This document shows, one piece after another, positions 4,947 through 33,698 of a stretch of DNA of 64,000 nucleotides. The notes below the pieces were generated by a model. The model saw only the letters and a program-made list of their open reading frames with translations, ran no database searches and was not told where the DNA came from. The translations under genes were made by a program, and so were the position numbers. Numbering within the stretch: the first letter of the stretch is position 1; the number at the start of each line of letters is the position of its first letter. Source of the DNA: Spirochaetia bacterium (GTDB lineage Bacteria; Spirochaetota; Spirochaetia; UBA9216); assembly GCA_963677925.2 (NCBI GenBank), contig CAXXYH010000003.1, positions 1,056,001 through 1,120,000 of the forward strand. The letters are read 5' to 3'.

Positions 4947-4975
4947 AAAAAAACAGCCCGCCCTAAGGCAGGCTG
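4947..4975 (-). terminator. Intrinsic terminator
   Basis: Minus strand CAGCCUGCC-UUAG-GGCGGGCUG followed by U7, downstream of the CDS ending at 4997. Confidence 0.8.
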
Positions 4976-4996: not shown

Positions 4997-6670
4997 TTAA
5001 TAATTCAGGTATTCAGGCATCTTCCCCGGATATCTATCAACAAGTGATTGCCAGTCTGAAGGCAGAACAGCCTTCTTACAGCAGGGACCGCCGTGGTCGC
5101 CTCCGCCAAGGTATACAGTGCCCCAGTCCGCCCCGCCTACAATCACAAACATATGCTCGGTATTCCAGAACAGGCGGGCATGATGCTTGAGGCCGGGTGA
5201 AGGAAAAACAAGCCCCTTTCGGGGATGATTGTTTCCGATAGCAGCCCTGGGGATTTCGGTTGAGGGTCTATGGTTGTATTCAACAACGTACTCAAGGATG
5301 TCCTGTTTTGTGAAACCGGCGTCCTTAAACTGTTTCGCATTCTCAGGAGGCAGTATAAACAGCGCACCGACATCAAATCCGCCGTGCCAGAGAGTGCACA
5401 TTCGGTCCAGGGTTGCGTTTACATTTACTGTCGGCAGCTGGGTATGCTCACTCGGCCAGAACAGAGTTATTGTAGAATCTTCATCAGAATAACCATAATC
5501 GGTCTGAAGCGGTGTCCATGGTGAATCTTCCTCGTTCTCGGCTATACAGACACCGAAGCGCCCGTCACTTCCCGGACCGCTCATATCTTCTATTCCCGAA
5601 CGGCAGCCGCTTATATTCATAATCATATATGTCACTGCCCGTGAGATGCAGGCTGCAGGTCTTGTATAGGGTGAAAGGATATTCCGGCCTGTGTTGATGC
5701 CGAGAGCTTCTCTTATAGGACCGTTTATGACCATAACCGGATACCAGCTGGCATTGCTGCAGGTCCAGCCTTCAAGCTTGATGATATCATCACCCATAGC
5801 CTCAACAGCTGCAATCAGCAGGGGCATATGGGTAGGCAGGCATCCGGCCATTACACCGTTGATCGCTATCTTTTCAACCGTTGCTTTACCGAGCATCGGC
5901 GGCAGTTCTGCTACGACATGGGAAGCCGGAAGATCCGTACCATTAAGCATTTCATTTACAGCTTCCCGGGTTGGAGGAACGACCGGGGTGCCGTTAGTCC
6001 AACCGTGCTGATAGAAAATATCATTGATTTCCTGAAGTGAACCGGTAAATGTCAGTTCTGAAAAATCATCAACCTTTCCAGGATTTTTCTCTTTATCAGA
6101 GAGAGGCGAAGTCAGTCCATCGATAATTTTATCAAGCATCCCTGAAATAACATCATGGTAGGTTGTTAATGTCCATTCGTTACAGTCTACACCGTTCGGG
6201 ACAAATCCGGGGCCGTCATAGGTAACCATACGGAGCCCCGGATATGAGCGGGCAGTTGAACCGTTTCTTGCGGAAGGTTCATACTGCCATTTGGACAGCA
6301 GAAGGGCAGGTTTTCCAAGACTCTCTATATGAGCAAATATGTATCCCATAAAAAGTGCGCATGATCCCATGTCGGCACCGACTCCGACAACGGCATCAAC
6401 ACCGGAGAGCCAGTTCTGAAATTCCGGATAATGCTCAGGATCCTGATCTATTTCACAGGTATCGGTAATATATGTGTAATGTGAGAAATTCACTCCTGAT
6501 ACTTTTTCATTTAACTGCCTCTCTACTTCCTGCATGAAAAAGGGATGATATTCCTTGAAAGAGGCATAGAGGCCGATTGTTTTTCCTTCGAGTGTTTCAA
6601 GTCTGGGCTGAATTGGTTTTTTTGACAGATAATCACTGCCGGCCCAGGGGGATAGAACCGTGTATTCCAT
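4997..6670 (-). CDS. UGSC-family (seleno)protein-like domain fused to its usual partner domain; function unknown
   Basis: PRLETLEGKTIGL...GADMGSC in the N-terminal part; GWTNGTPVVPPT and ATVEKIAINGVMAGC in the C-terminal part. Start taken at ATG 6670. Confidence 0.7.
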   Translation of the reverse strand: MEYTVLSPWAGSDYLSKKPIQPRLETLEGKTIGLYASFKEYHPFFMQEVERQLNEKVSGVNFSHYTYITDTCEIDQDPEHYPEFQNWLSGVDAVVGVGADMGSCALFMGYIFAHIESLGKPALLLSKWQYEPSARNGSTARSYPGLRMVTYDGPGFVPNGVDCNEWTLTTYHDVISGMLDKIIDGLTSPLSDKEKNPGKVDDFSELTFTGSLQEINDIFYQHGWTNGTPVVPPTREAVNEMLNGTDLPASHVVAELPPMLGKATVEKIAINGVMAGCLPTHMPLLIAAVEAMGDDIIKLEGWTCSNASWYPVMVINGPIREALGINTGRNILSPYTRPAACISRAVTYMIMNISGCRSGIEDMSGPGSDGRFGVCIAENEEDSPWTPLQTDYGYSDEDSTITLFWPSEHTQLPTVNVNATLDRMCTLWHGGFDVGALFILPPENAKQFKDAGFTKQDILEYVVEYNHRPSTEIPRAAIGNNHPRKGLVFPSPGLKHHARLFWNTEHMFVIVGGADWGTVYLGGGDHGGPCCKKAVLPSDWQSLVDRYPGKMPEYLNY

Positions 6671-6796
6671 GTTAATACTCCAATGGTGCATTCAATATAA
6701 AACATAAGTTTCACGGTTATTATATTTTCGGGGAGGAGGGATCGTCCAATATTATATATTCATCAAAATAATAAGCGAAAGCTATAAGTCAGTGCA

Positions 6797-7219
6797 TTAT
6801 CTTCTTGTGAGTTTGATTACCCTGTAATCCTCTTTTTCAGATGAGTCATCTGCCATCCTGCTGATTTCAATACTTTTACTGTTCTTATTGATAATCTGCA
6901 TTTCAACCGTCCAGGGAACATCTGCTTCAGGACTCTGTCCGAGAATCCGGCTTGTTTCCTCGGTTATCGTAAAAGTAATTATATCATCTTCAATAAGGAA
7001 AGAACCCTTCATAAAGATATCGAGATCGTACTCTTCTTCGGTTTCGAGCCCGGGAACCTTCCAGTTAAAGGTAAAACTGCCGTCATCCATGAATATATAT
7101 TGATAGACACTGCCGGGTATTTCATTTTCAGTTGCAAGATCCGCATAAGTACCTTTGAGACTGCTGCTGCAGCTGCTGATTAGAATAACCAGGACTGTAA
7201 GTATTGCAAGTTTTTTCAT
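6797..7219 (-). CDS. Hypothetical lipoprotein
   Basis: MKK + hydrophobic stretch + ISSC lipobox-like signal; GGAG RBS upstream. Confidence 0.75.
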   Translation of the reverse strand: MKKLAILTVLVILISSCSSSLKGTYADLATENEIPGSVYQYIFMDDGSFTFNWKVPGLETEEEYDLDIFMKGSFLIEDDIITFTITEETSRILGQSPEADVPWTVEMQIINKNSKSIEISRMADDSSEKEDYRVIKLTRR

Positions 7220-7253
7220 AATTTCTCCTCTTGTAAGCCGGGGAATTATATCA

Positions 7254-8048
7254 TTAAGCCGGGAGAAAGGGAATGAGCGGATAATGTTCCAGAACTATCA
7301 GTAAACCAAGCAGGATTAATGTGAAAACAGGCAGCAGAATATCACGTCCATGAAAGAATACATCTTTGACATAGGTCCGTTCTGTATGATGGCCGAAGGC
7401 TCTGCAGTCAAGTGCGTCGGCCGTGATTTCCGCTTTCCTAAGACCGTTTACAAGAATGGTAAAGACATAGCGCTGCCATAGGGCAAAACGGTGACCGAGG
7501 CCCGAGCCTGATGCTTTTCCCCTGATGGCATGAGCCGATCGTACAGCATTAACCTCACGCTGTATAAGGGGCAGAAAGCGAAGTGCCAGAAAGATGGTAA
7601 ATGCATAGCGGTAGGGCATACGGGCCTTTACCAGTGAACGCATCAGATCCCTGGTATCTGTGGTCCAGATAAGAACAAAACTTGCAAGTACAATAACAGA
7701 GAGCCGGAAAAAGAATATAGGCCCCTGAAAGAGTCCGTTATCTGTAATGGTAATAAAACCGATTTTCATCAGGGGTTCACCCGGATCGGCAAACATATGG
7801 AAAATCATCAGAAGTATCCCCAAACCGAAGACTATCAGACCGCTGCGGAGAATCTCCAATATGGAAATTCTCCCTGCTGAAACAGCCAGTGCAACCATAA
7901 AAACAAACATCACAGCTCCACTGTAGGGTGTTTTAAAAATGAAGAGTCCGACTGCAACAAGAAAAACCCAGATAAGCTTAACCAGAGGATATGTACGGTT
8001 AAGTGCCGAGCCGCGCTCTTTAAACTGAAGAAAATTACTGTCAGCCAT
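7254..8048 (-). CDS. ECF transporter T component (EcfT/CbiQ family)
   Basis: LALRFLPLI, HAIRG and ALDCRAF coupling motifs. Confidence 0.92.
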   Translation of the reverse strand: MADSNFLQFKERGSALNRTYPLVKLIWVFLVAVGLFIFKTPYSGAVMFVFMVALAVSAGRISILEILRSGLIVFGLGILLMIFHMFADPGEPLMKIGFITITDNGLFQGPIFFFRLSVIVLASFVLIWTTDTRDLMRSLVKARMPYRYAFTIFLALRFLPLIQREVNAVRSAHAIRGKASGSGLGHRFALWQRYVFTILVNGLRKAEITADALDCRAFGHHTERTYVKDVFFHGRDILLPVFTLILLGLLIVLEHYPLIPFLPA

Positions 8049-9805
8049 TACATCTTTCCTCCTGCGCTCAGCAGTTCAAGAAACATCCCGCTGCCCGGAA
8101 TGCTTCCGTTAATCTCAAGTCCTTTCTGCTCGAGTTTTTTCAGAATTTCGCTCAGCAGGGTCGGCTGAAGATTCGACTGCTGCAGTATCTCAGGCTTCCT
8201 GAAGAGCTCTGAGGGTATTCCGTCATAATATTTTTTACCCTCACTAAGGACAATCACCCTGTCGGCATACTCCTCAACAAGCCTCATATCATGACTTATC
8301 ATAATCACGGCTACTCCGCGGCTCTGAATGTCTTTCATAAGCTTCATTAGATTGCGGGTCATCTCACGGTCCTGCCCGTATGTCGGTTCATCGACAATCA
8401 GGACTGAGGGATTACCTACAAGCATCGTAGCAACGCCCAGTCTGCGTTTTTTTCCGGCACTCAGTGCAAAGGGATGAGAATCCGCAGAATCTGTAAGCTC
8501 AAGCTCCTCGAGAAGCCGTTTCAGTTCAGCAGCCATCTCATCCTTGTTAAACACACCCTTGGACTTCAGACTGTACTCAATTTCCTCTGATACTGTATCT
8601 GTAAGAAACTGATGCTCCGGATTCTGAAAAACCAGAGCAATATGATTTGCAAGCTTCGGAATTTTCCATTTTACAGAGGGTTTGCCCATCAGCATCAGGC
8701 TGCCTTCTGTGCATTTGTTAAGACCAATCAGAAGTTTGGCAAGGGTGCTCTTCCCCGCTCCGTTTCTGCCGACAACTGCAAGCATCTCACCTGCCCTTAC
8801 ATCAAAAGAGACTCCTTTTAAAGCGTACAGCCCCGCGCCGTAGGAGTAGCGAAGATCTTCGGCCTTTATCAGGATATCTTCCGAAACAGAACCAGTATGC
8901 AACTGTGAAGATTCATCATTTTTAGATGGCCGTCCGGTCAGACTCTTTACTGATGCAGTCAGCCCGGAATCATCAAGCAGTTTAAGGGTTTCATCTATAC
9001 GTATGGGAATTATCGGAACTGAATACCCGAGCTTCTTAAGGCCCAGACCTATCTCAACTGTTTCGGGAAGCCAGATGCCAAGAGAATTGATATACTCGCC
9101 TTTTTCAGACAATAGACTGCAGGGCTCACCTGATGCAGCAAGTTGTCCGTCTTCGAGGACAAGAATCTGATCCGCTTCGGCCATAAAATCATCGAGCTCC
9201 CTTGTAACAAGAAGTACTGTGATACCCTCACTTCGAAGACTGAGTATCAGCTCATGCACCTGTCTTGAGGCTGCAGGATCAAGGTTTGCCGTAGGTTCAT
9301 CAAGGACGATGATTTTGGGTTTCATTGCAAGAACTGAAGCCAGGCCGAGCTTCTGAATCTGTCCGCCGGAAAGATTCCAGACAAGATTCTTTCTGTAAGG
9401 TGCAAGCTCGGTTAATTCAAGAAGTTCATCAACTGAGCTCTTGATCTGCTCCGCCGGATGAATCAGGTTCTCGGGACCGAAGGCTATCTCATCTTCAACC
9501 GACAAGGTAGCGAACATGTTCTCGGGATCCTGAAACACATATCCAACTGAGCATGAGAGCTCTTTCATTTCAGTATCCGCGCTGTTCATAGAGTCGATCA
9601 GCACGGATCCTTCAAGCCTGCCGGGAATAAGATGGGGAATTCGTCCGTTAAGAAGGTTACAGAGTGTAGATTTACCGCTTCCTCCAGGGCCGACAAGTAT
9701 TGAGAAACTTCCGGCCGGAAGTGAAAAACTAAGATCGCTTAATACAGGCTTTTCCTCCCCGTCAAAGGTGAAAGTTACATTATTAAGTTCTATTATACCC
9801 GGCAT
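8048..9805 (-). CDS. ECF transporter duplicated ATPase (YkoD-like)
   Basis: Two ABC cassettes: GPGGSGKS/LSGGQ/LDEPT and GRNGAGKS/LSAGK/VDEPT; FQDPE and FQNPE Q-loops. Confidence 0.93.
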   Translation of the reverse strand: MPGIIELNNVTFTFDGEEKPVLSDLSFSLPAGSFSILVGPGGSGKSTLCNLLNGRIPHLIPGRLEGSVLIDSMNSADTEMKELSCSVGYVFQDPENMFATLSVEDEIAFGPENLIHPAEQIKSSVDELLELTELAPYRKNLVWNLSGGQIQKLGLASVLAMKPKIIVLDEPTANLDPAASRQVHELILSLRSEGITVLLVTRELDDFMAEADQILVLEDGQLAASGEPCSLLSEKGEYINSLGIWLPETVEIGLGLKKLGYSVPIIPIRIDETLKLLDDSGLTASVKSLTGRPSKNDESSQLHTGSVSEDILIKAEDLRYSYGAGLYALKGVSFDVRAGEMLAVVGRNGAGKSTLAKLLIGLNKCTEGSLMLMGKPSVKWKIPKLANHIALVFQNPEHQFLTDTVSEEIEYSLKSKGVFNKDEMAAELKRLLEELELTDSADSHPFALSAGKKRRLGVATMLVGNPSVLIVDEPTYGQDREMTRNLMKLMKDIQSRGVAVIMISHDMRLVEEYADRVIVLSEGKKYYDGIPSELFRKPEILQQSNLQPTLLSEILKKLEQKGLEINGSIPGSGMFLELLSAGGKM

Positions 9806-9812
9806 ATTTCAA

Positions 9813-10454
9813 TTATTTCTTTGCTGATCTTATAAGACCGGTCTTTGCGATTCGTCCTGCAAGGAAATAGCCGAGTAGACCGCTGAATACAGCACCTGAA
9901 ATCATATTGACAGGAACGGCAATCCAGACATCCTTTGAATAGGCGGGATCCCATCCGTAGAAAACAGAACTCCACAGTGTACCGAACTGTGAGGATGCAA
10001 TACCTGCCATCAGTGCTGTCATAAGGCCGAAGCGTGAATAAGCGGTAATAATAAGTATGACCTCAATAGCAAGGCCCTGTGAGATACCCCATCCGAGGGT
10101 TCCGATTCCGGCAGCATTGCCCAGAAGAACTTCTGTGGCAGCTTCGATAATACCGAAAGCAAGTGCAACACCGGGCTTTCTTACCATAAATACAGCAAGT
10201 ATATATGCCCACATGAACATTCCCTGAATCAGGGCTCCGCCCAGAGGTCCGAGTGAAGTGTTGGCAAGATACCAGATGTTGCCGACACCAGTATTGATTA
10301 CACCCGCAATTGCAGCAAGTACCGCAACTACAACAAGGTTCCGTGTGGAATATCCACCCTTCTCTTTTTCAAAGACATTCTTGTCCGTGAGTCTGGCAAC
10401 CAGCCCAAGGACAACCAGGACCGCAACGTTAAAAACCGTGTACAGAGCCATCAT
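9813..10454 (-). CDS. ECF transporter substrate-specific S component (YkoE-like)
   Basis: About 6-7 TM helices, VRKPGVAL and QGLAIE motifs; adjacent to ECF A and T genes. Confidence 0.82.
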   Translation of the reverse strand: MMALYTVFNVAVLVVLGLVARLTDKNVFEKEKGGYSTRNLVVVAVLAAIAGVINTGVGNIWYLANTSLGPLGGALIQGMFMWAYILAVFMVRKPGVALAFGIIEAATEVLLGNAAGIGTLGWGISQGLAIEVILIITAYSRFGLMTALMAGIASSQFGTLWSSVFYGWDPAYSKDVWIAVPVNMISGAVFSGLLGYFLAGRIAKTGLIRSAKK

Positions 10455-10465
10455 TTTCTCCTGTT

Positions 10466-11833
10466 CTATAATTTTAAGCCGATATCGGCTAATTCTGCCT
10501 TTACTTCTTCATAGATGGAAAGCCATTCGGCTTTCGGCTCGCAGGTATCCATATCATAAGCTTCATCGAACGGGAGCCCGGGATTTCCGCCTTTTTTTTC
10601 AAATACAAACTCGTACCTTGAAAGAAGTTCCAGAATAATCCTGTTGCCTTCCTTAAAGTCTATCCGCTGCCCTGTAACCGCATGACCGGTTTCTCCCATC
10701 ACACGAACTTCAATACCCGTTCCGTGAGGAACACTGCCGTCAGCGGAACCGACACCTTCCAGATGCCCTCCAGCCACTGTAAGGGTAACGGCATTGGCGG
10801 CAACCTCATACAGAACTTCTTTTGTCATTGCTCCGCTCTTGGGATATATATCACCGACAATAATTGCAGGGGCGTTCCGAGCAAAGGCCTGGCAGACCAT
10901 GCTCTGAAGCCACATGCAGCCGCGGGCGGATGTAGCCACATACCTGATATGTATGGGGTGGCAGAGATGGTAGTCTGCAAGACAGATTATATTGGCTGCA
11001 AGAAAGGATGCTATCTGCACGACCGCAGCACCCGGAGCATCACCGGCAAGTCCGCCTACCATTACGGTAGCAAGCGAGGCATTAGCCATGCCGTAGTGCA
11101 CTGAATTTGCAGCCCGCAGCATATTACCGCGGTCTATCATAAGCTCATTGTACATTGCAACGAGGTGTGAATCGCAGGGTCTGAGAAGTTCAGGATGCGC
11201 TGATGCCAGGTCGCCTATTTCGGTGACACTGCTTTCAGCACCGAGCATTCCGATACCGGGGCGGCCGCATTCCTCGCGGACTTCCTTCAGAATTGAAAGT
11301 TCCCGTTTGGAGGCGTAGAGTTCGCTGACTTCGCCTGAACGCACCTGGACTCCGTCTACATCGATGAGGGAGCCGCAGGTAATCAGATCTACAACAGGCT
11401 CCTTTGTCCAGCTTTTCACAGTTGCCTTGAAAACGCGTTCGGGAGTCGGCGCACCGGGATTTCCGGCCCACACTGCGGGCGGACGCTCATCAAGGGGTTT
11501 TCTCGGGTGCAGTGTATATGCCTGTTCGCCCTCACCCATCACAAAAGATTTGTTCATAGCCTTCGCAGCAGAGTCTATTTCTTCCGCGGAAAGCTCCAGC
11601 ACAGTACCTTCTGACAGGTAGTATATTCCGGTATCAAGCAGGAGTTCCCGACCGGCATTATAAAGTCTGTCGGCAAGTTCCGGGTTGTCTTCAAGAATTA
11701 ACTCGGGGTTCCAGCTTAAGCTGTACTTGTCTACAAGCTTCATAGCCTTTTCGACAATAAGAAAATCCCAGTCATTTTTTGACATCTTTCTGCCTTTTAA
11801 GGCACGTTCAGATATTTCAAGGTAATTAATCAT
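10466..11833 (-). CDS. Monomethylamine:corrinoid methyltransferase (MtmB) family homologue, pyrrolysine-free
   Basis: Colinear with Methanosarcina MtmB as recalled: ERALKG..WD, GRPGIGMLGAESS vs GRPGMGV(Pyl)GPETS, DSH..NEL, IHIRY, TGIEVRVMGE, F.EAYD..T.EP. Start ATG 11833. Confidence 0.85.
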   Translation of the reverse strand: MINYLEISERALKGRKMSKNDWDFLIVEKAMKLVDKYSLSWNPELILEDNPELADRLYNAGRELLLDTGIYYLSEGTVLELSAEEIDSAAKAMNKSFVMGEGEQAYTLHPRKPLDERPPAVWAGNPGAPTPERVFKATVKSWTKEPVVDLITCGSLIDVDGVQVRSGEVSELYASKRELSILKEVREECGRPGIGMLGAESSVTEIGDLASAHPELLRPCDSHLVAMYNELMIDRGNMLRAANSVHYGMANASLATVMVGGLAGDAPGAAVVQIASFLAANIICLADYHLCHPIHIRYVATSARGCMWLQSMVCQAFARNAPAIIVGDIYPKSGAMTKEVLYEVAANAVTLTVAGGHLEGVGSADGSVPHGTGIEVRVMGETGHAVTGQRIDFKEGNRIILELLSRYEFVFEKKGGNPGLPFDEAYDMDTCEPKAEWLSIYEEVKAELADIGLKL

Positions 11834-12010
11834 AATTCCACCGTACAGGCTGGTACGGATTAAAGAAAGGAAAGAACAAGAAGATAATTCCACCGCAGCA
11901 GCCTAAAAATAAATTTATTTTACAGCTTGCGCGACCGCGGCACCTCACAGATTTTTTCTGAATCGGTACGAACAGGCTTCCCGTCCTCAATGTCTGCGCA
12001 TGGAATTTTC
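11832..12010 (-). ncRNA. Candidate cis-regulatory structured RNA leader (class unassigned)
   Basis: 11994-12007 can pair with 11886-11898 to close several internal hairpins. The 3' strand is repeated at the RBS/start (ATAATTCCACCG at 11832-11843 and 11884-11895). Confidence 0.45.
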
Positions 12011-12016
12011 TGCACC

Positions 12017-12042
12017 CGCAATTATTTCAATAAATAATTGCG
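12017..12042. repeat. Perfect 11-bp inverted repeat (operator or hairpin)
   Basis: CGCAATTATTT-CAAT-AAATAATTGCG. Confidence 0.7.
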
Positions 12043-12131
12043 AAACCAAAGTATAAATAGCAGATTAATTGTTTTTATTCAATAGTCGCACCTTATATTC
12101 AGCTTAAAAAAACTTAACATACCCGAAACTT

Positions 12132-12335
12132 TCAGATGTCGATGCTGATAACATGGGATTTTTTGGGAATCGGATAGCGCTTATCAGGACTTAGATAGAT
12201 TTCTACAGCTTCTTTTATTTTTTTACATACGGCTTCTTCGGAATCAGCATAACAAATACATCCCGGAAGCTCCGGGCAGACGGCATCGTATGAACCTGTT
12301 TTCTCATCAAACTTTACTACTACACGAATTTGCAT
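12132..12335 (-). CDS. HicB-family antitoxin-like protein (short, orphan)
   Basis: Y.A.CPELPGC...A.S.EE....IKEAVEIYL pattern; no HicA ORF adjacent. Confidence 0.8.
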   Translation of the reverse strand: MQIRVVVKFDEKTGSYDAVCPELPGCICYADSEEAVCKKIKEAVEIYLSPDKRYPIPKKSHVISIDI

Positions 12336-12439
12336 AAGTTTCCCTGACCAAAATCATTAAGTAAAATGAGTACCTTGCTTTTGTACCTTTAATTCTATGG
12401 ATTTTTATCAGGTATGCAAATTTCTGCAGTGAAAAGTTC

Positions 12440-12664
12440 TCACCCCCCTCCGACAGGAGGGAAGAGAGACACAATATCTGTTGAAGTGAGCGCCCTGTCC
12501 ATAGTTCCGGTTCTTCCATTAATCAGAAGAATCGCAACCTCCTCTTTCGGAATATCCAGTTTTTCAATGATATCCCGGACAGTAGCTCTTTCTTCAAAAT
12601 CCAGCTTTAGCTCTTTGCCCCGCCCATTTCGGAGTGTGGCAAAGAGCCTTACCGTTACAGTCAT
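12440..12664 (-). CDS. moaD: MoaD/ThiS sulfur-carrier protein
   Basis: Ubiquitin-like size, VRLFATLR start, ends FPPVGGG; overlaps the aor stop. Confidence 0.9.
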   Translation of the reverse strand: MTVTVRLFATLRNGRGKELKLDFEERATVRDIIEKLDIPKEEVAILLINGRTGTMDRALTSTDIVSLFPPVGGG

Positions 12665-14469
12665 AGGACTGCAGAAAGCTTAATACCCAGAGACTCAACT
12701 CTTTCAGCAGTAGGTATTCCGTCAGAGCCCCAGCCCCGAAGATTATAATATTCGGGAAGAAGATCAGATAACTTGTGTGTCCATCCCTTCGATGGGCCGT
12801 CCGGGATTTCTTCTGTTAGCAGTCTTTTCGGAAGAGTATCCTGTGAGGGCTCGATTCCCGCCTTAAGATTGTATATTCTTTCTATATTATATATGCGTTC
12901 ACCGGCTGCAAGTATATCCTCGGCAGACCAGCCGGTCCCGAGAACTGCATTCAGCATATCCGCATAGTCACCGGCACCCATTGCAAATGAAGTAAACAGA
13001 CAGAGTCCTGATGAATCAATCAGGGCAGTAAGGTCCTGGAAGATCTTTGCCCAGGAAGCCTTGCCCTCAAGCTTGAAACGGTCCAGAGCCTCCGGCAGTC
13101 CGAGTATCTCCGGAGAAATAAGGTAGCCGCGGACATGGCAGCCGCCTCTGTTTGATGTTGCATACTGCAGACCCTGGCCCTGGATACCGCGTGGATCATA
13201 TGCAGGAATCTCCTGCTTCTTAACAGACATGGAAAGTTCCGGGACTCCGTATGATTCGGTCAGTCTGTAGGAACCCAGAGCCATCCTGGCTCCAAAGCCT
13301 TTTCCTCTACCCATGCGTTTAGTCCACTCAACAACAGCCTCTGCATCACCGAATTTTAAGGAAACACCATCAAGCTCGGATTCATCAATATATCCCTTCT
13401 GGTAAAGTTCCATAGCCGCAGCTATTGTAGCACCGGCAGAAATTGTATCCATACCTGTTTCATTGCACCAGTAGTTGGCCTTGATTACCGCACCCATATC
13501 CGAAACCCCACAGTCTCCGCCGAAGGCCCAGACGGTTTCATATTCCGGTCCGCCGCCCTCAATATCATCAGCCTTGCAGTATCTGCCGCAGGCAATCGGA
13601 CATCGGTAGCAGGGGTCTTTCTTGACCAGGTAGCTTTCAGACATTGTTTCACCGCTGATTTCTTCAGCTTCAGCAAACTGTGATGTCTGAAAATTGTTCG
13701 TAGGAAATACCCCGTTTTCATTAATAATATTTACAAGAACAGCTGTCCCGTAGGTCGGAAGGCCCTGACCGGTAACACCGTTTTCCTTTATCTGCTTCAT
13801 GCATCTTTTATTAACTTCTTTTAGAGCAGCTTCATCGGCTACAGAGGGTTTAGCTGAGCCTTTCACAGTTATTGCTTTAAGATTTTTGGAACCCATTACA
13901 GCCCCGACACCTGAGCGGCCCGCAGCCCTCCAGAGGTCATTCATGATTGCGGCGATTGGTGAAAGGTTCTCACCAGCAGGTCCTATTGTCATGACCTTTG
14001 CTTTTGCAGGTATTTCCTTCTGCAGCGCTTCGGTCGTTTCAGATACCAGCTTTCCCCAGAGATGTCCGGCATCCCTTATCTCAACACTATCATCTTCAAT
14101 AGCAATATAAACAGGCTTTTCAGCTTTTCCTTCAATTATGATGGCATCATAACCGGCAAACTTAAGCTCGGCACCCCAGTACCCTCCGGAATTGGATGAT
14201 GCTATAGTTCCTGTAAGCGGTGATTTAGTTACAACCATATAGCGGCCGCCGGTTGGTGTAGGTGTGCCTGTGAGCGGTCCGGTAACAACCATCAGTTTGT
14301 TTTCAGCTGAGAGGGCATCAACTTCCGGAGAAGTCTCCTTTGTCATCAGGTATGTACCCAGCCCCCTGCCGCCTATATATTTCAAGGCGGCCTCATGATC
14401 AAGTTTTTCAGTTGATACTGCCCCGGTACTGAGATCTATCCGAAGAATCTTTCCTGTATATCCGTTCAT
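12661..14469 (-). CDS. aor: Tungsten-dependent aldehyde:ferredoxin oxidoreductase
   Basis: GYTGKILRIDL, YIGGRGLG, KSPLTG, AAGRSGVGAVMGSKNLKAI, CYRCPIACG, GPEYET, YDPRG and NRGGCH. Confidence 0.95.
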   Translation of the reverse strand: MNGYTGKILRIDLSTGAVSTEKLDHEAALKYIGGRGLGTYLMTKETSPEVDALSAENKLMVVTGPLTGTPTPTGGRYMVVTKSPLTGTIASSNSGGYWGAELKFAGYDAIIIEGKAEKPVYIAIEDDSVEIRDAGHLWGKLVSETTEALQKEIPAKAKVMTIGPAGENLSPIAAIMNDLWRAAGRSGVGAVMGSKNLKAITVKGSAKPSVADEAALKEVNKRCMKQIKENGVTGQGLPTYGTAVLVNIINENGVFPTNNFQTSQFAEAEEISGETMSESYLVKKDPCYRCPIACGRYCKADDIEGGGPEYETVWAFGGDCGVSDMGAVIKANYWCNETGMDTISAGATIAAAMELYQKGYIDESELDGVSLKFGDAEAVVEWTKRMGRGKGFGARMALGSYRLTESYGVPELSMSVKKQEIPAYDPRGIQGQGLQYATSNRGGCHVRGYLISPEILGLPEALDRFKLEGKASWAKIFQDLTALIDSSGLCLFTSFAMGAGDYADMLNAVLGTGWSAEDILAAGERIYNIERIYNLKAGIEPSQDTLPKRLLTEEIPDGPSKGWTHKLSDLLPEYYNLRGWGSDGIPTAERVESLGIKLSAVL

Positions 14470-27151: not shown

Positions 27152-27949
27152 TTAATATCCTGATTCTATGGTCTGTCCCTGCACTATTTTCACCCCGCCG
27201 CTTGTTCCAAGCCTGGTTGCTCCGGCGTTGATCATAGCAACTGCATCATCAAAGGTCCGGACTCCGCCGGCAGCCTTTACTCCCATATCAGGACCGACAG
27301 TCCTTCTCATAAGAGCGACATGCTCGGGAGTTGCACCGTGAGTTGAAAATCCGGTTGAAGTCTTTACAAAGTCAGCCCCGGCTTTTTTAGTAATTTCTGA
27401 AGCAAGAACAATTTCCTCGGTTGTAAGCAGGGCTGTTTCAATAATAACCTTCAGCAGGGCACGCTGTCCGCAGGCGCGTCTTACCCATTTGATATCCTCT
27501 TCAACAAGTTTCAGATCACGGTCTTTCATGGCTCCGATATTCATAACCATATCAATCTCGGTGGCTCCGTCTTCAATGGCATGCCTTGTCTCAAAGTTTT
27601 TAGCTCTTGAGCTCATGGCGCCAAGCGGAAAACCGACAACACAGCAGACTTTAACATCAGTACCCTGAAGATTTTTCGCACAGCGGGCTACCCAGGTAGT
27701 ATTAACACATACCGAGCAGAAGTTGTACTGTTTTGCCTCAGCACAGAGTTTATCAATCTGTTCAGCAGTTGCATCAGCTTTAAGCAGGGTGTGATCAATA
27801 TATTTAGCGATGTCAGAAGGAATTAATACCTTGCTGCTCTCCGACGGGGCTGCTGCCGCAGACTGCGGAGCCAAAGCGGTTGCGCCTTCGTTTTTAAGTT
27901 TCTCTACTATCTCTCTGGTTATTTTATCGATTAGTTCTTTGTCGTCCAT
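27152..27949 (-). CDS. deoC: Deoxyribose-phosphate aldolase with N-terminal encapsulation peptide
   Basis: [32 protein letters not shown] and VKAAGGVR. Extra N-terminal amphipathic helix [19 protein letters not shown] plus an Ala/Pro/Ser linker. Confidence 0.93.
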
Positions 27950-27952
27950 GAG

Positions 27953-28447
27953 TTAACCATTACCTCTCTCTATTGCCATTATTTTATTGATTCTGGGCCA
28001 GTGTCTTCCGCCCTCAAACCTTGTCTCAAGCCATACCTTGCACATCTCACACAGCTCTTCCGGGCTGTGCAGAGGACCTCCAAGGGTCAGCACGTTTGCA
28101 TTGTTATGCACCCTGCTGTTTTCTATTGTACGCATGTTATAGCATAAGGCGGCTCTGATTCCCTTCACCTTGTTGCAGGCCATGGAGGAGCCTATTCCCG
28201 CTCCGTCTATCATAATACCGCGCTCGGCTTCCCCGCTGGCAACGCTCTTTGCCACCTTAAGTGCGTAGTCGGGATAGTCTACACTATCTGTTGAATATGT
28301 TCCAACATCTATGACCCTGTACCCGAGAACTTCAAGATATTTTTTCAGGATTTCTTTTGACATATATCCGCCGTGATCTCCGCCTATTGCGACACGGGAC
28401 ACATTCTCTTTCCTGTTTGCAGCTGTAAAATCTGTTTCACCGTACAT
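27953..28447 (-). CDS. rpiB: RpiB/LacAB-family sugar-phosphate isomerase
   Basis: GGDHGG, VDYPDYA, NKVKGIRAA, HNNANVL and FEGGRH; DGAGIG replaces the usual CGTGIG. Confidence 0.9.
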   Translation of the reverse strand: MYGETDFTAANRKENVSRVAIGGDHGGYMSKEILKKYLEVLGYRVIDVGTYSTDSVDYPDYALKVAKSVASGEAERGIMIDGAGIGSSMACNKVKGIRAALCYNMRTIENSRVHNNANVLTLGGPLHSPEELCEMCKVWLETRFEGGRHWPRINKIMAIERGNG

Positions 28448-28728
28448 TACTTACCTTCTTTTACCATATCTACGCGATCTACGATTGCCGCTGTTACAGT
28501 CCTGATAGGCTGAGAGCTCATCCCGAGCATAATACCCGCTGATCCGCCTTCATCTATAATCAAAACTGTATCACCCGCTCCGGCCTGAACAGTGTCAACA
28601 GCAACAATTTCCTTACCAATGATATTTCCTTCAGGGTCAATCTGCCTGAGAATCAGAAGCTTCTGACTTTCAAGTTTCCTGCTTTTCTGGGTTGAAACAA
28701 CCGTGCCGGTAACCTTTGCAAGTATCAT
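28447..28728 (-). CDS. BMC vertex pentamer (BMC-P, EutN/CcmL family)
   Basis: MILAKVTGTVVSTQK...VAVDTVQAGAGDTVL...AIVD. Confidence 0.93.
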   Translation of the reverse strand: MILAKVTGTVVSTQKSRKLESQKLLILRQIDPEGNIIGKEIVAVDTVQAGAGDTVLIIDEGGSAGIMLGMSSQPIRTVTAAIVDRVDMVKEGK

Positions 28729-28997
28729 GATTCCGCCCTGTCTATTCTGTCAATAATTCCAAGTACAGCCGCATCAGAAGGGTTAAACCAGTTATCCAGT
28801 GCAAGAGCAGCTTCGCGTCCGCCCTCATAGATAACAGTATCACCGGGCCCAGCCTGAACTGTATCACAGGCAACAACGGGGCTTCCGCTTTCTTTCATTT
28901 GATCATCAAGCGGCTGAACAAGCAGAAATTTTATCCCTTCAAGCGATTCATCCTTTCTGGTGCATATCACCGTACCGGTGACTCTTCCTATTTTCAT
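28725..28997 (-). CDS. BMC vertex pentamer (BMC-P)
   Basis: MKIGRVTGTVICTRK...VACDTVQAGPGD...DAAVLGIID. Confidence 0.93.
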   Translation of the reverse strand: MKIGRVTGTVICTRKDESLEGIKFLLVQPLDDQMKESGSPVVACDTVQAGPGDTVIYEGGREAALALDNWFNPSDAAVLGIIDRIDRAES

Positions 28998-29009
28998 GTC
29001 CCGGCTCCC

Positions 29010-30431
29010 TTATACTATTCTGAAATAATCAATAAGCGCACATCGTCTTTCCCGGGTAAATGTTCTGGCCCTTGTAAAGCCTTCCCCGGTTGGACTTGCA
29101 ATGGTAAAGGAGGTGTATCCTGCACCGCCGGTTCCCATTCCGTTGAAATTGGAACCGTTTTTCACAAACAGTGAGCAGTTGATTACCCTTGCCATCTTTG
29201 AAAGTTTTGCAATATTCATTGAGTGCATTGATGCCGAATGCCGGAAACCGTGTTCAACCTCAACAGCAAATGATATTGCTTCATCAACATCATCAACCCG
29301 CACAAGAGGCATTACCGGCATAAGCTGTTCGGTCCATACCAGAGGATGGGATCTATCAACTTCACAGAGAAGCAGCTTTGTCTCAGGCGGAACAGTGATT
29401 CCGGCAGCTGCAGCGATGACCGAAGCGTTCCTGCCTACAAACTTCTTGTTTGCAGCGCCCTCATCACCCTTTCGCCCCGGCTTATCTATAACATTGGCAG
29501 TTACGGCTTTGATCTGGTCGCTGTTTAATTCATAGGCGCCGTTTTTAACCATCTCAGCCTTAAGCCTGTCGGCTATAGACCGAACGGCAATAACTTCCTT
29601 CTCGCATATGCAGACTATGTTGTTATCAAAGCTCGCACCGGCAACGATATCCTTTCCCGCCTTTACAAGATCCGCGGTCTCATCGACTATACATGGAGGG
29701 TTGCCCGGACCTGCAGCAATAACCTTCTTGGTTGACTGCATTGCCTGCTTTACAACACCGGGACCGCCGGTAACTGTGAGAAGGTTTATATAGGGATGGG
29801 TCATCAGAACCTGAGCGCTTTCTATAGTAGGATTTGCAACAGTAACTATGATATTATCCGGTCCGCCGGCCTTTTTTACGGCTTCATTGAGAAGCCCCAC
29901 CGCAAAGACTGAGACATTCCTGGCACCCGGATGGGCGTTGAATACAACAGTGTTTCCGGCGGACAGCATGCTTATTGAGTTGTTGATTATGGTTTCGGTC
30001 GGATTTGTGCTTGGTGCAATTGCCCCTATAACTCCGTAGGGAGCCCTTTCAGTCAGGGTGAGGCCGTGATCATCGGTAAAGGTATGCGGCTGCACATCCT
30101 CCACTCCGGGAGTCATTGTCGCTGCAAGGATATTTTTCTTTATCTTATCCTCATAGCGGCCCATTCCGGTTTCTTCAACAGCCATCCGGGCGAATTCTTG
30201 TGCATTGGCAGATGCGGTATCACGAATTGATTGAATCACTGCCCGCCGTATTTCAAGAGATGTCTCCTGAAATACCTGAAATGCCTTATGAGATTCATAA
30301 ATTGCTGTGTTTATATCATCGAAGACACCGGGAACCGGTTTCATTGAATAGGAAACCGTCTTCTCTTTTCCTGAATATCCGCTGACTATTGATGTCACCA
30401 TTTCACGAATGGCTGATTCATTAATTTCCAC
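29010..30431 (-). CDS. CoA-acylating aldehyde dehydrogenase (EutE/PduP family) with N-terminal encapsulation peptide
   Basis: EETGMGRYEDK, PSTNPTET, TGGPGVV, AGPGNPP, SFDNNIVCICEKE and TIASPTGEG; leader MEINESAIREMVTSIV. Confidence 0.95.
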   Translation of the reverse strand: MEINESAIREMVTSIVSGYSGKEKTVSYSMKPVPGVFDDINTAIYESHKAFQVFQETSLEIRRAVIQSIRDTASANAQEFARMAVEETGMGRYEDKIKKNILAATMTPGVEDVQPHTFTDDHGLTLTERAPYGVIGAIAPSTNPTETIINNSISMLSAGNTVVFNAHPGARNVSVFAVGLLNEAVKKAGGPDNIIVTVANPTIESAQVLMTHPYINLLTVTGGPGVVKQAMQSTKKVIAAGPGNPPCIVDETADLVKAGKDIVAGASFDNNIVCICEKEVIAVRSIADRLKAEMVKNGAYELNSDQIKAVTANVIDKPGRKGDEGAANKKFVGRNASVIAAAAGITVPPETKLLLCEVDRSHPLVWTEQLMPVMPLVRVDDVDEAISFAVEVEHGFRHSASMHSMNIAKLSKMARVINCSLFVKNGSNFNGMGTGGAGYTSFTIASPTGEGFTRARTFTRERRCALIDYFRIV

Positions 30432-30978
30432 TTACATACCCCTTGATATCACTGTGCGGCACCGGTATTACTACGCTTCGGAAAAGTCTTTCCTTGCCTC
30501 GAAGAACAGCGCATGCGGTTTCAACCGCGTATTCCATATCACCGACAGGACCATTGAGTTTCAACAGACTTTTTCCGCCGGTTTCATTCCCGGCATTTAT
30601 TTCGACAACCTCGACTCCGGCGGCTTTCACCGCGGTATCAGCTGCTTCTATAGCCGATACAATTGAAGTTGTTTCAATCAGGCCCAGAGCATCCCAGTCT
30701 TCAGGCTCCCTCACCTGCTGTACGCAGCCGAGAACAGAATCATCAAGATTTCTAAGGACTGCCCGGTCATATATGGTATCTTCACCCGCTCCATATGCTT
30801 CATTCATAGCAGACTCTACCGAGGCAACATCACCGCATATAATTATCAGAAACTTTCCCGGATTTATAGTTTCAGCACGAAGAATCTCAACCGGGGCCTG
30901 TTTAACCATTGCATCAAGGGCAAAATATCCGTCGGCTATACTCTGGTACTCAAGCAGTCCTACTATTTCTATACTCAT
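30421..30978 (-). CDS. BMC tandem-domain shell protein (BMC-T, PduT-like)
   Basis: Two BMC domains: GLLEYQSIADG..ALDAMVK...GDVASV and ALGLIET....AIEAAD.AVKAA...VIPVPH. Confidence 0.9.
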   Translation of the reverse strand: MSIEIVGLLEYQSIADGYFALDAMVKQAPVEILRAETINPGKFLIIICGDVASVESAMNEAYGAGEDTIYDRAVLRNLDDSVLGCVQQVREPEDWDALGLIETTSIVSAIEAADTAVKAAGVEVVEINAGNETGGKSLLKLNGPVGDMEYAVETACAVLRGKERLFRSVVIPVPHSDIKGYVSGN

Positions 30979-31262
30979 TTGCGGAACACAACCTTATCTT
31001 TTTCTTCCACCTGATCAACAATCCCGATAATTATCGCATCTACAGGTTTATCCTTGCTGATTTTAGTCTGCCTGGTTGAGCTGCCCTGAGATAGAAGTAC
31101 AAGCTCACCGGCCGAGGCTCCCAGAGGATCCAGGGCGACAATACCGCCGCTTCCTTCTTTTCCGGAAGTATCACAGGGAATCACCAGCAGGTACCGGGCT
31201 TCATCTATTCCATCGGAACGTATAGCGGACACCACTGTTCCGGCCACCTTTGCAAGCATCAT
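30975..31262 (-). CDS. BMC vertex pentamer (BMC-P)
   Basis: LAKVAGTVVS...VALDPLGASAGELVL..QGSSTR...PVDAIIIGIVD. Confidence 0.93.
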   Translation of the reverse strand: MMLAKVAGTVVSAIRSDGIDEARYLLVIPCDTSGKEGSGGIVALDPLGASAGELVLLSQGSSTRQTKISKDKPVDAIIIGIVDQVEEKDKVVFRK

Positions 31263-31564
31263 CCGGCTGCCCCGCCTTTTTTATAGACTATTTTTCCCGA
31301 CATATCATAACTGTCCACTATACCGATGATAGTAGCGTCACTCGGTTTTCCTGCAGTTATATCTGTCTGCCGGCTGCTGCTGCCTCCGACAAAGAAAACG
31401 ATCTCGCCTTCACCGGCGCCGACAGCGTCCATAGCCACCACATAATCTTTTTTGCCTTCAAGAGTCTTTACATCTATCTTTTCAAGAAGGAGCAGTTTTA
31501 TCCCTTCAAGACGGGCTTCCTTTGCAGTCGAAACTACTGAGCCCACTACTCTTGCAAGTACCAT
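31259..31564 (-). CDS. BMC vertex pentamer (BMC-P)
   Basis: LARVVGSVVSTAK...VAMDAVGAGEGE..GSSSR...DATIIGIVD. Confidence 0.93.
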   Translation of the reverse strand: MVLARVVGSVVSTAKEARLEGIKLLLLEKIDVKTLEGKKDYVVAMDAVGAGEGEIVFFVGGSSSRQTDITAGKPSDATIIGIVDSYDMSGKIVYKKGGAAG

Positions 31565-31566
31565 AA

Positions 31567-31869
31567 TTATTTTTTCCCTTTAGTGTTTCTTCCAAGCGGC
31601 AGAACTTCATCGACACTGGCATGAGGTCTGGGGATAATATGCACGCTGATTACCTCACCGACCCTTTCGGCTGCCCTGCTGCCCGCGTCAAGAGCGGCTC
31701 TTACTGCAGCAACTTCACCGCGGCAGATTGATGTAATAAAACCGCCGCCGATTCTCTTGCATCCTATGAAATCAATATTGGCCGCCTTGGCCATTGCATC
31801 AGAGGCCTCTACCATCGCGGCAAATCCTCTTGTTTCTATCATGCCAAGCGCATTGTTTGTTGTAGACAT
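31567..31869 (-). CDS. BMC hexamer shell protein (BMC-H)
   Basis: ALGMIETRG..AMVEASDAMAKAA...RGEVAAVRAA...HIIPRPH. Confidence 0.96.
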   Translation of the reverse strand: MSTTNNALGMIETRGFAAMVEASDAMAKAANIDFIGCKRIGGGFITSICRGEVAAVRAALDAGSRAAERVGEVISVHIIPRPHASVDEVLPLGRNTKGKK

Positions 31870-31882
31870 TTATAAACTCTCC

Positions 31883-32506
31883 TTATAGTGCTTTTCCGCT
31901 GATATCAGCGAGCTTAGACTCTACGGTATCTTTACTTACAAGTACTTCCGATTCTTCACCGGCTATATAGATTCTTCCAAACTTTCCTATGCCCGATACA
32001 TTGATTATGTTGATGTTTGAAGCTTTTTCAGCCTCATTGGCAGCATAGTAGGCGTACCCGGCCGGCTCAATCTCAAGGATGAATACTGTATCTCCGCGGA
32101 GCACCATATTGCCGAACCTGACTTTGTTGATCAGCTGTGCATGGTGATCGCTTATGTTCTTAATCAGCTGGCTTGTGAGAATCTTCGGCTTAAGCCGATC
32201 TTCCTCTTTAAGATTAAGAGCTTCAAGAATTGCAGCGCCTGCCTGTCTTGCATCGCCCTGGCTGTCAGAATGAACCTCGAGTAGACCGAAAGACCTTTCT
32301 ACCACCTGAATACCCGGAGTTACACCGGTAGCCTTTAATGCGATGTCGGTAAGCCTGTTGATCTCTATACCGGGTGCAATCTCTACAATTGCACAGGCCT
32401 GTCCGCCCACCGGAAAATAACCTCTTGATACAGTACACATGTAAGAGGCCATCTGCAGCTGCAGTGAATCTATAAAGTTAAATGTCCTCAGTTCTATATT
32501 CTGCAT
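31883..32506 (-). CDS. BMC permuted tandem-domain shell protein (BMC-Tdp, CcmP-like)
   Basis: ELRTFNFIDSLQ, EIAPGIEIN, QVVERSFGLLEVH and AANEAEKA, as in gated double-stacking trimers. Confidence 0.9.
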   Translation of the reverse strand: MQNIELRTFNFIDSLQLQMASYMCTVSRGYFPVGGQACAIVEIAPGIEINRLTDIALKATGVTPGIQVVERSFGLLEVHSDSQGDARQAGAAILEALNLKEEDRLKPKILTSQLIKNISDHHAQLINKVRFGNMVLRGDTVFILEIEPAGYAYYAANEAEKASNINIINVSGIGKFGRIYIAGEESEVLVSKDTVESKLADISGKAL

Positions 32507-32805
32507 TACTTGGCTCCTGATTCACTCAGGGGGAGTTTGCTGTCTACGGATGCATCAGGTCTTGGAATAATATGTACGGATACAACTTCTCCAACCCTTT
32601 CAGCAGCCTTGCTGCCTGCATCAAGCGCTGCTCTTACAGCCGCAACATCTCCTCTGATTATTGCTGTAACATAACCGCCGCCGGTTTCCTCGTGGCCCTT
32701 AAGCTCTACTTTAGCAGCCTTTACCATAGCATCCGCAGCTTCTACCATTGCGGCGAAGCCCCTGGTTTCTATCATGCCCAGAGCGTTTTCTTTGTTATCA
32801 GTCAT
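32506..32805 (-). CDS. BMC hexamer shell protein (BMC-H)
   Basis: ALGMIETRGFAAMVEAADAMVKAAKV...TGGGYVT..RGDVAAV...HIIPRP. Confidence 0.96.
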   Translation of the reverse strand: MTDNKENALGMIETRGFAAMVEAADAMVKAAKVELKGHEETGGGYVTAIIRGDVAAVRAALDAGSKAAERVGEVVSVHIIPRPDASVDSKLPLSESGAK

Positions 32806-32851
32806 CTTTCCTCCAGAAAATAAATTTCTTTTTATTTATGCATTCACGGAA

Positions 32852-33607: not shown

Positions 33608-33668
33608 ATTTCCTCCGCTAAGAATGTATAAAAAGATAATTTCAAATATTTTATTTAACAGTAGCAAC

Positions 33669-33698
33669 ATTCTAATGTTATTTTTGCAACATTGTCAA
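33669..33698 (-). promoter_or_regulatory. sigma70 promoter of the SDR-BMC operon, overlapped by a putative DeoR operator
   Basis: Minus strand TTGACA-18 bp-TAGAAT; the operator ATGTTGCAAAAATAACATT (33692-33674) fills the spacer. Confidence 0.72.

Follow-up and report, generated by a model that had tools for sequence, protein, structure and literature searches.

A pyrrolysine-free MtmB homologue paired with a dedicated ECF importer in a Spirochaetia bacterium, a candidate corrinoid-dependent demethylase for methylated purines

Introduction

What does a homologue of the methylamine methyltransferase MtmB do when it carries no pyrrolysine and is encoded directly ahead of an importer? This question is raised by an operon of a Spirochaetia bacterium, found in a 64,000-nucleotide stretch of DNA (positions 1056001-1120000 of contig C3; hereafter the window, in whose numbering coordinates are given below), in which an MtmB-like gene is followed by the genes of an energy-coupling factor (ECF) transporter. 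Pyrrolysine is held to be catalytically necessary for methylamine activation by MtmB, and ECF systems import micronutrients. Judging from gene neighbourhoods, we give a probability of about 0.5 to the reading that this operon encodes an N-demethylase that depends on a corrinoid and acts on an imported, methylated base of the adenine type, which would serve purine and methyl salvage.

In the MtmB family, which exceeds 1,000 sequences, only one pyrrolysine-free member, MtqB, has a known function. The MtqB paper, published in 2026, presents it as the first function for any pyrrolysine-free MtmB and gives the remaining such clades of its 1,061-sequence tree no assigned function (PMC13044021). The statement in an initial annotation of the operon, made from the DNA alone, that functions of pyrrolysine-free MtmB proteins are poorly defined still describes most of the family and is slightly dated with regard to MtqB. 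The window protein belongs to a tight clade, whose members share at least 52% identity although they come from several phyla, and the unusually informative gene context of this clade allows a concrete and testable substrate hypothesis.

The window protein is a pyrrolysine-free member of the MtmB family

The operon and its immediate flanks comprise the following features:

11884..12010, minus strand: conserved structured 5' leader RNA, a candidate cis-regulator (covariation and an invariant 20-nt core)
10466..11833, minus strand: MtmB-like gene, putative substrate-specific methyltransferase (MT1), 455 aa, PF05369
9813..10454, minus strand: YkoE-like ECF S component, 213 aa, PF09819
8048..9805, minus strand: fused A-A' ECF ATPase, 585 aa, two ABC_tran domains
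7254..8048, minus strand: ECF T component of the CbiQ family, 264 aa, PF02361
6797..7219, minus strand: lipoprotein-like open reading frame (ORF), 140 aa, with a signal-peptide/Cys-like N-terminus

The MtmB-like, S, A-A' and T genes follow one another in this order at spacings of 11 nt and 7 nt and then with a 1-nt overlap. The MtmB-like gene is taken to start at the ATG at 11833, in agreement with the N-termini of orthologues; its longest ORF begins at GTG 11893. The protein matches PF05369 over profile positions 4-450 of 450 (E 1.1e-93, 315 bits, cut-off 25) and the solved M. barkeri MtmB1 chain 1L2Q with E 5.9e-61. In the latter alignment, pyrrolysine 202 (X of 1L2Q) falls on the Leu of GRPGIGM-L-GAESS, which is invariant across 23 orthologues, and no in-frame stop occurs in the ORF. 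Hence the full-length MtmB-like ORF with Leu at the pyrrolysine position, as initially annotated, was confirmed to the residue, and the match over the whole profile identifies a true pyrrolysine-free family member. Neither an in-frame UAG encoding pyrrolysine at position 202 nor an adjacent cognate corrinoid protein (MtmC), the two marks of MtmB proper, is found at the window operon. Moreover, the gene is the sole MtmB-family gene of its genome (99.6% complete), in which PylS has no match and the best PylD score, 23 bits, falls short of the cut-off of 150.

The best 120 of 1054 matches are all full length, share 56-100% identity with the window protein and derive from Spirochaetes, Deltaproteobacteria, Anaerolineaceae, Planctomycetota, Bacteroidetes, Blautia and Eubacterium; Oceanispirochaeta is also named among the sources. 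When the library was clustered at 50% identity, this orthologue group formed one full-length cluster (56%), and every other full-length cluster of the MtmB family showed at most 40% identity to the window protein (40% and 35% for the next two). The distribution is patchy: within the order, only 2 of 11 genomes have the orthologue, both belonging to its own genus, and a phylum-wide sample contained no close orthologue, 18 other genomes having only paralogues of 25-32% identity.

The ECF importer is genetically dedicated to the MtmB-like enzyme

The importer genes were assigned by Pfam (S component against PF09819, E 1.6e-25; T component against PF02361 CbiQ, E 1.1e-33) and, for the ATPase, by the NCBIfam models ECF_ATPase_1 (TIGR04520) and ECF_ATPase_2 (TIGR04521), both above the cut-off; neither the methyltransferase nor the S component is covered by an NCBIfam model. 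Together with the short gaps, these results bear out the closely following YkoE-like S, double-ATPase and T components that had been read from the sequence, and show S, A, A' and T in one tight operon, as is typical of group-I ECF systems. The sole match of the S component in the PDB is B. subtilis YkoE (5EDL; E 9e-17, ~30% identity).

We then used the S protein to search 401 sampled genomes of the Spirochaetia. Orthologues of S (81-100% identity) were present in 13 of them, and in all 13 an MtmB-like gene (67-100%) lies directly upstream and the ATPase gene downstream. A further 26 genomes have only a distant YkoE-like S component (25-35%), and an MtmB-like gene was found within 1.5 kb at none of the 17 such loci fetched. 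The importer is thus a group-I ECF system that is genetically dedicated to feeding one enzyme. The conserved pairing and the Pfam placement also remove the two grounds on which the initial annotation was to be given up, namely loss of the pairing in other genomes and failure of a profile search to place the ORF in the MtmB family.

Orthologue neighbourhoods point to purine uptake and salvage

We collected 81 orthologue loci with 52-70% identity, 80 of them on metagenome contigs and one from a genome record; the same-genus locus L002 was excluded from the counts. Neighbours were scored by tblastn with representative proteins, after Pfam and NCBIfam annotation of ORF clusters, as follows:

YkoE-like ECF system: 16 of 81 loci
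ATP-binding cassette (ABC) importer of the Bmp/PnrA type, with a nucleoside-type binding protein, two BPD_transp_2 permeases and a double ATPase: 17 of 81 loci
membrane protein of ~510 aa without a Pfam family, always directly downstream: 10 of 81 loci
any of these three importers: 43 of 81 loci
adenine deaminase, above the TIGR01178 cut-off: 12 of 81 loci
corrinoid protein: 9 of 81 loci
GntR regulator: 9 of 81 loci
nucleoside phosphorylase (PNP_UDP_1): 6 of 81 loci
RACo: 3 of 81 loci
homocysteine S-methyltransferase: 3 of 81 loci
MOSC protein: 3 of 81 loci
5'-deoxyadenosine-deaminase-like protein: 2 of 81 loci
xanthine dehydrogenase subunit: 2 of 81 loci
psuG with psuK: 2 of 81 loci

Where at least 2.5 kb is available on both sides of the gene, one of the three importers is present at 25 of 32 loci. 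The ~510-aa membrane protein is modelled as a 7+7 transporter of the UraA fold (predicted local distance difference test, pLDDT, 67; predicted template-modelling score, pTM, 0.67). Foldseek matched it to BicA, SLC26, SVCT1, UapA and UraA (E 1e-6 to 1e-4, TM-score 0.4-0.6), and its nearest named ESM-Atlas cluster is Xan_ur_permease, the xanthine/uracil permease family (0.90), which serves as a lead only. As a control, we scored distant paralogues of the same phylum, likewise pyrrolysine-free (27-32% identity), at 29 loci. None of the three importers and no purine gene lies within 1.5 kb of the paralogue at any of the 29, and a corrinoid protein adjoins it at 23. These data indicate that the importer and purine context is specific to the orthologue clade.

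The recurrence of adenine deaminase, a nucleoside-type ABC importer, a UraA-fold permease, a phosphorylase and the purine riboswitches described below points to methylated purine bases or nucleosides. Drawn from neighbouring genes, the assignment of a methylated purine as the substrate stands, in our estimate, at even odds. By analogy, demethylation of methylated adenines without pyrrolysine would be chemically plausible, because the methyl group of N1- or N3-methyladenine sits on a cationic ring nitrogen, as in the quaternary amines that serve other pyrrolysine-free enzymes as substrates, and because the protonated ring of N6-methyladenine could act as an electron sink.

Two groups of metagenome loci have a richer setting. 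At L066 and L072, the MtmB-like and ECF genes are immediately preceded, on their own strand, by psuG (pseudouridine-5'-phosphate glycosidase), a PfkB kinase gene (psuK-like), a SIS-domain gene and a BtpA-family gene, which places an ECF-type operon inside a modified-nucleoside catabolism cluster. Loci L101-L104 hold up to four MtmB-family paralogues per locus and two corrinoid proteins, as well as ThiS-like, cupin, HAD and MOSC genes and a xanthine-dehydrogenase-type subunit; from its gene content, this is a predicted multi-enzyme demethylation island around the orthologue.

The initial annotation had proposed salvage of a methylated vitamin or cofactor precursor. Its general idea, that some scarce methylated compound is salvaged, agrees with the dedicated group-I ECF system and with the guanine-type purine riboswitches of relatives and is retained here, but the vitamin or cofactor precursor is not, because the neighbours are adenine deaminase, a nucleoside ABC importer, a permease, a phosphorylase and purine riboswitches. 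We regard it as unlikely that the imported compound is a thiamine pyrimidine, a B6 vitamer or a cobamide lower ligand from which the enzyme removes a blocking methyl group. This alternative is favoured by the sole solved relative of the S component, YkoE, being a thiamine/hydroxymethylpyrimidine (HMP) S component, by the general role of ECF systems in micronutrient import, by PNPOx-family genes near L034-L037, L078, L094 and L095, and by a weak match of the Bmp binding protein (51 bits, cut-off 400) to a model for a putative B6 binding protein. However, identity between the S component and YkoE is only about 30%, adenine and nucleosides are the substrates of the recurrent enzymes, and those riboswitches that could be assigned to a known class are of the purine type. 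Rfam detected no thiamine pyrophosphate (TPP) or other vitamin riboswitch upstream of the operon, and no thiamine, B6 or cobamide biosynthesis genes occur among the recurrent neighbours, so that the TPP riboswitch and thiamine neighbours expected of a YkoEDC thiamine/HMP system are both missing.

That the enzyme demethylates a quaternary amine or a simple methylamine like MtqB, with the ECF system importing that amine, seems no more probable. MtqB, which uses tetramethylammonium or choline, is the only pyrrolysine-free MtmB with a shown function, and pyrrolysine-free MttB enzymes are likewise described as using quaternary amines (PMC13044021). In contrast, the window clade is sharply separate at 50% identity clustering, no betaine, choline or amine transporter type was found among its recurrent neighbours, and an amine substrate would leave the purine genes and purine riboswitches without a role.

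A two-step route has also to be weighed, in which a YerA-like deaminase frees methylamine from N6-methyladenine or N6-methyladenosine and the MtmB-like enzyme uses the monomethylamine without pyrrolysine. We consider it very improbable, given that the residue held necessary for methylamine activation is replaced by Leu and that the genome of the window keeps the enzyme and importer without an adenine deaminase C-domain gene. The neighbouring deaminase scores 271 bits to the adenine-specific Atu4426 and 50 bits to the C-terminal domain of YerA, a comparison that is not decisive because only this domain of YerA is in the PDB. In favour of the two-step route, an adenine-deaminase-family gene adjoins the orthologue at 12 of the 81 loci, and some members of that family are described as specific for N6-methyladenine (PMC12133300).

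Purine riboswitches occur at the loci of relatives

The purine riboswitch RF00167 was detected at six loci with 58-80 bits (gathering score 37). At five of ten loci scanned (L003, L051, L070, L087 and L091), the riboswitch separates the MtmB-like gene from downstream ABC importer and adenine deaminase genes. The sixth, L052, gave the sole match among the nine loci of its scan; here the riboswitch stands upstream of genes for adenine deaminase (6020..7954), the MtmB-like protein (8001..9368) and the permease (9414..10943), separated by gaps of 46 and 45 nt. This arrangement puts the methyltransferase and permease of L052 inside a predicted purine-controlled operon; the other five loci show adjacency only. 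In the two copies displayed, the specificity position is C, which under the C74/U74 rule we take to mark the guanine/hypoxanthine class, presumably the usual signal of purine-salvage regulons.

Candidate corrinoid partners are encoded away from the operon

Genes for a corrinoid protein, RACo/RamA or URO-D/MtaA are absent from the window, confirming the initial observation that no MtmC-type corrinoid protein, RamA activase or second methyltransferase (MT2) gene is nearby; all genome-wide matches to PF02310 (8), PF14574 (1) and PF01208 (13) lie outside C3:1056001-1120000. The rarity of such a neighbour is a real peculiarity of the clade, as a corrinoid protein adjoins the gene at 9 of 81 loci compared with 23 of 29 for distant paralogues. 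Searching the genome for corrinoid proteins did reveal a cluster at C3:~1739.9-1744.8 kb, about 680 kb from the operon on the same contig (within L123, G000:C3:1732000-1751999), with these members:

PocR/AraC regulator
corrinoid protein, 211 aa, MtgC/MtbC-like, with a DxHxxG motif
10662..12011 of L123, minus strand: MtaA/CmuA-like URO-D protein, 449 aa, with a thioredoxin-like tail
CobW GTPase, between the MtaA/CmuA-like gene and RACo
RACo activase

This cluster has no MT1 gene; counting the MtmB-like protein, the three-component corrinoid methyltransferase set (MT1, corrinoid protein and MT2, with RACo) is entirely encoded in the genome. The C-terminal extension of the MtaA/CmuA-like protein (~90 aa) weakly matches thioredoxin-like (seleno)protein models of the HUIPC motif family (E 2.5e-4).

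At several loci of relatives, the enzyme and a corrinoid protein are encoded side by side. The corrinoid protein gene is directly upstream of the MtmB-like and ECF genes at L061 and L092 and directly upstream of the MtmB-like gene at L060, a locus cut at its end. Loci L106-L108 contain the MtmB-like gene, a corrinoid protein gene, a homocysteine methyltransferase gene, one gene of no assigned family and RACo, and at L107 and L108 the ECF genes are divergently upstream of the MtmB-like-corrinoid set. Moreover, RACo stands beside a 65-75% orthologue of the corrinoid protein of the window genome in all 5 of the other operon-bearing spirochaete genomes that were tested, far from their MtmB-like-ECF operon. 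Phyletic coupling of this corrinoid protein with the operon was considered as evidence and rejected, since its orthologue occurs in 156 of the 401 class genomes; the protein looks like a shared hub rather than a dedicated partner.

We also predicted the complex of the MtmB-like protein with this corrinoid protein. It scored 0.39, against 0.02 for the best of three controls, with contact agreement between runs of at least 92% and a partner pLDDT of at least 82. Among solved complexes, 116 of 157 score at or above the mark applied, as do 2 of 215 mismatches, and the range from the mark up to 0.60 holds only 18 of the 157 solved complexes and both passing mismatches. The model thus gives weak support to the pairing, and likeness to solved MT1-corrinoid complexes may contribute to the score.

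That the MtmB fold has been repurposed for other chemistry, as suggested initially, need not be assumed for a genome with a corrinoid protein, an MtaA-like MT2 and RACo, the more so as a corrinoid protein or a whole MT1-corrinoid protein-MT2-RACo set adjoins the orthologue at L060, L061, L092 and L106-L108. Among the alternatives, a hydrolase, lyase or binding protein that acts on the imported compound and needs no corrinoid protein is the most improbable. Such a protein would account for the scarcity of adjacent corrinoid genes in the clade and their absence from the window; it agrees poorly with the loci just named, with the corrinoid protein and RACo kept in all five operon-bearing spirochaete genomes tested and with the weakly favourable complex prediction (0.39 versus 0.02). 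In our judgement the MtmB-like protein is quite probably a corrinoid-dependent MT1 fed by the co-encoded importer.

A conserved structured RNA precedes the MtmB-like gene

The leader of ~127 nt ends about 50 nt upstream of the start codon and precedes the gene in every spirochaete copy, and its 20-nt core does not vary, even though identity between the proteins is only about 70%. RNAalifold folds the leader into four helices: an outer one, one that closes a three-way junction, and two hairpins, of which one is invariant with 7 bp and the other variable. Compensatory changes were found (for example CG/UA 5:5, AU/GC 7:3 and AU/GC/GU 6:3:1). In an alignment of 18 copies, 16 of them distinct, 96.1% of cells are paired and both partners vary in 7 pairs. 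None of 500 shuffles equals the observed pairing or covariation, and in slid controls 29-49% of cells are paired; these statistics lean in favour of the model because the alignment was fitted to it and the sequences are related.

No Rfam 15 family matched the leader: a scan of the window at gathering scores found none, and one of 11750..12450 at the relaxed threshold of E <= 5 gave only a chance snoRNA-like match. A cobalamin-like look by eye was not borne out by any Rfam match. The leader does not match the purine riboswitch RF00167 either, from which its core and helices differ.

A search with the leader model found one copy in the genome of the window (102.8 bits), no match in 78 loci outside the spirochaete group, including the corrinoid cluster L123, and further copies among the loci only in L037 and L002. 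In the 401-genome class sample, the exact core occurs once in each of the 13 MtmB-like-ECF genomes, and a near-match in six genomes without the ECF operon; the reversed-pattern control for the core gave 2 matches. Two of the six, G667 and G606, have full leader copies (80 and 76 bits) upstream of an MtmB-like gene and a UraA-fold permease gene, without an ECF system. The other four near-matches were treated as chance: G492, G467 and G547 have no model match at E <= 1, and G613 has a partial one of 20.5 bits inside an ORF. Since the leader is present with either the ECF or the permease importer, the RNA follows the methyltransferase and not the importer type. From its conservation, it is a candidate riboswitch or other cis-regulator, probably controlling expression of the operon.

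Directly 5' of the leader, between it and the upstream small ORF and outside the conserved RNA alignment, lies a perfect inverted repeat (12017..12042, minus strand; 11-nt arms, 4-nt spacer), AT-rich with CGC/GCG ends, which could be an operator or a hairpin.

A proposed route for methylated adenines

In the proposed pathway, the ECF transporter with its YkoE-like S component would import a scarce N-methylated heteroaromatic compound, the likeliest being a methylated adenine base or nucleoside of the N6-, 1- or 3-methyladenine type. The MtmB-like enzyme, as MT1, would move the N-methyl group to the Co(I) corrinoid protein encoded 680 kb away, which RACo would keep active. MT2 (MtaA-like here, the homocysteine methyltransferase at L106-L108) would hand the methyl group to a thiol, to homocysteine or to the one-carbon pool, and the demethylated purine would enter salvage, in relatives via adenine deaminase to hypoxanthine. 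The conserved leader RNA would control expression. What we infer here is the substrate class, the involvement of the distant corrinoid protein, the acceptor to which the methyl group finally passes and the role of the RNA.

Several points weigh against this proposal. The substrate assignment is indirect, being drawn from neighbourhoods, and the window operon itself contains no purine gene, nor did a search of its genome find an adenine deaminase C-domain gene. None of the three importers was seen at 38 of the 81 loci, many of them on short contigs, and the UraA fold is common to nucleobase and anion carriers, so that fold does not settle the substrate of the permease. At five of the six riboswitch loci, RF00167 controls the ABC importer and deaminase genes and not necessarily the methyltransferase. 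The corrinoid adjacency of the clade is far below that of the paralogues, and with an orthologue in 156 of 401 genomes, the presence of the corrinoid protein in 12 of the 13 operon carriers is weak evidence of partnership. The genome also encodes other candidate MT1s, namely one MttB homologue and the 13 URO-D matches. Finally, YkoE is reported to bind thiamine, so a vitamin-like ligand is possible (PMC5037267).

If the proposal is true, modified nucleobases would be a new substrate class for corrinoid methyltransferases, and in anoxic habitats, the gut among them, the turnover of epigenetic and epitranscriptomic bases would be tied to one-carbon metabolism and purine salvage. In that case, the leader RNA would be a candidate new riboswitch whose ligand is directly screenable. 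A broader and distinctly more speculative possibility is a widespread, oxygen-free pathway of anaerobes (marine spirochaetes, Anaerolineae, gut Blautia, Eubacterium and others) that recovers both the purine ring and the methyl group of methylated adenines shed by nucleic-acid turnover, by means of an MtmB-family corrinoid methyltransferase that lacks pyrrolysine and is supplied by interchangeable dedicated importers, the spirochaete leader being a new riboswitch class that senses the methylated base.

Other features of the window

The 140-aa lipoprotein-like ORF begins 34 nt downstream of the T gene on the same strand, with no terminator-like site between them in the scan, and may be co-transcribed with the operon; it has no Pfam match and is conserved only in the same genus (L002). 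Further downstream, a 564-aa ORF (4997..6691, minus strand) has an N-terminal domain that weakly matches the UGSC (seleno)protein family, with E 2.3e-8 in Pfam and 23.7 bits in NCBIfam, where the cut-off is 125. This ORF is preceded by a promoter-like site, and the region's only terminator-like site follows it at 4954..4975. Between the operon and an aldehyde:ferredoxin oxidoreductase gene (12661..14469), the regions 12134..12335 and 12414..12683 (minus strand) contain two small ORFs, a HicB-like one just upstream of the operon leader and a MoaD/ThiS-like one after the oxidoreductase gene; a ThiS-like ORF also recurs near the orthologues at L101-L104. A bacterial microcompartment (BMC) locus (27152..33670, minus strand) comprises two BMC-domain shell genes, four EutN/CcmL genes and genes for an aldehyde dehydrogenase, a DeoC-family aldolase, RpiB and a short-chain dehydrogenase, and is adjoined by sugar kinase and DeoR regulator genes.

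Comparison with known systems

The closest solved relative of the enzyme, M. barkeri MtmB (1L2Q/1NTH, PF05369), shares full-length homology, the same GRPG motif before the pyrrolysine position and, presumably, the role of substrate-specific MT1 in a corrinoid methyl-transfer chain. In contrast, the window enzyme is bacterial, has Leu for pyrrolysine, a genome without pyl matches and no adjacent MtmC, and is paired with importers and, in relatives, with purine genes; free methylamine is a very unlikely substrate. MtqB/MtqC of Methanococcoides methylutens Q3c likewise involves a pyrrolysine-free MtmB-family MT1, but is described as a methanogen system that uses tetramethylammonium or choline and in which MtqB adjoins its own corrinoid protein (PMC13044021). 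The window clade is usually apart from its corrinoid protein and tied to nucleobase-style importers. The pyrrolysine-free MtmB of 'Ca. Formimonas warabiya', raised in dichloromethane-grown cells (PMC9768040), was considered and set aside as a member of a different clade with ~30% identity and no assigned function. A literature search that did not cover supplements found no paper connecting MtmB homologues with a riboswitch, with purines or with ECF transporters.

As for the importer, B. subtilis YkoEDC (with YkoF; YkoE 5EDL) is described as a group-I ECF system that is alike in its PF09819 S component, fused double ATPase and T component in one operon (PMC5037267). The window S component differs from YkoE by its ~30% identity, the lack of a TPP riboswitch and a subfamily that always stands next to an MtmB-like gene. 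The purine riboswitch RF00167 is found in relatives with purine uptake and adenine deaminase genes and, at L052, with the whole operon.

With regard to chemistry, AlkB/FTO-type enzymes remove the N-methyl group of adenine oxidatively. Other known routes for N-methyladenine are described as proceeding by hydrolytic deamination catalyzed by YerA/Bsu06560, Add or MAPDA (PMC8643624, PMC13296781, PMC12133300). The proposed route would share with the known ones the substrate class and the outcome, a usable purine. Unlike them, it would be oxygen-free, keep the methyl group on a corrinoid and yield adenine instead of hypoxanthine and methylamine.

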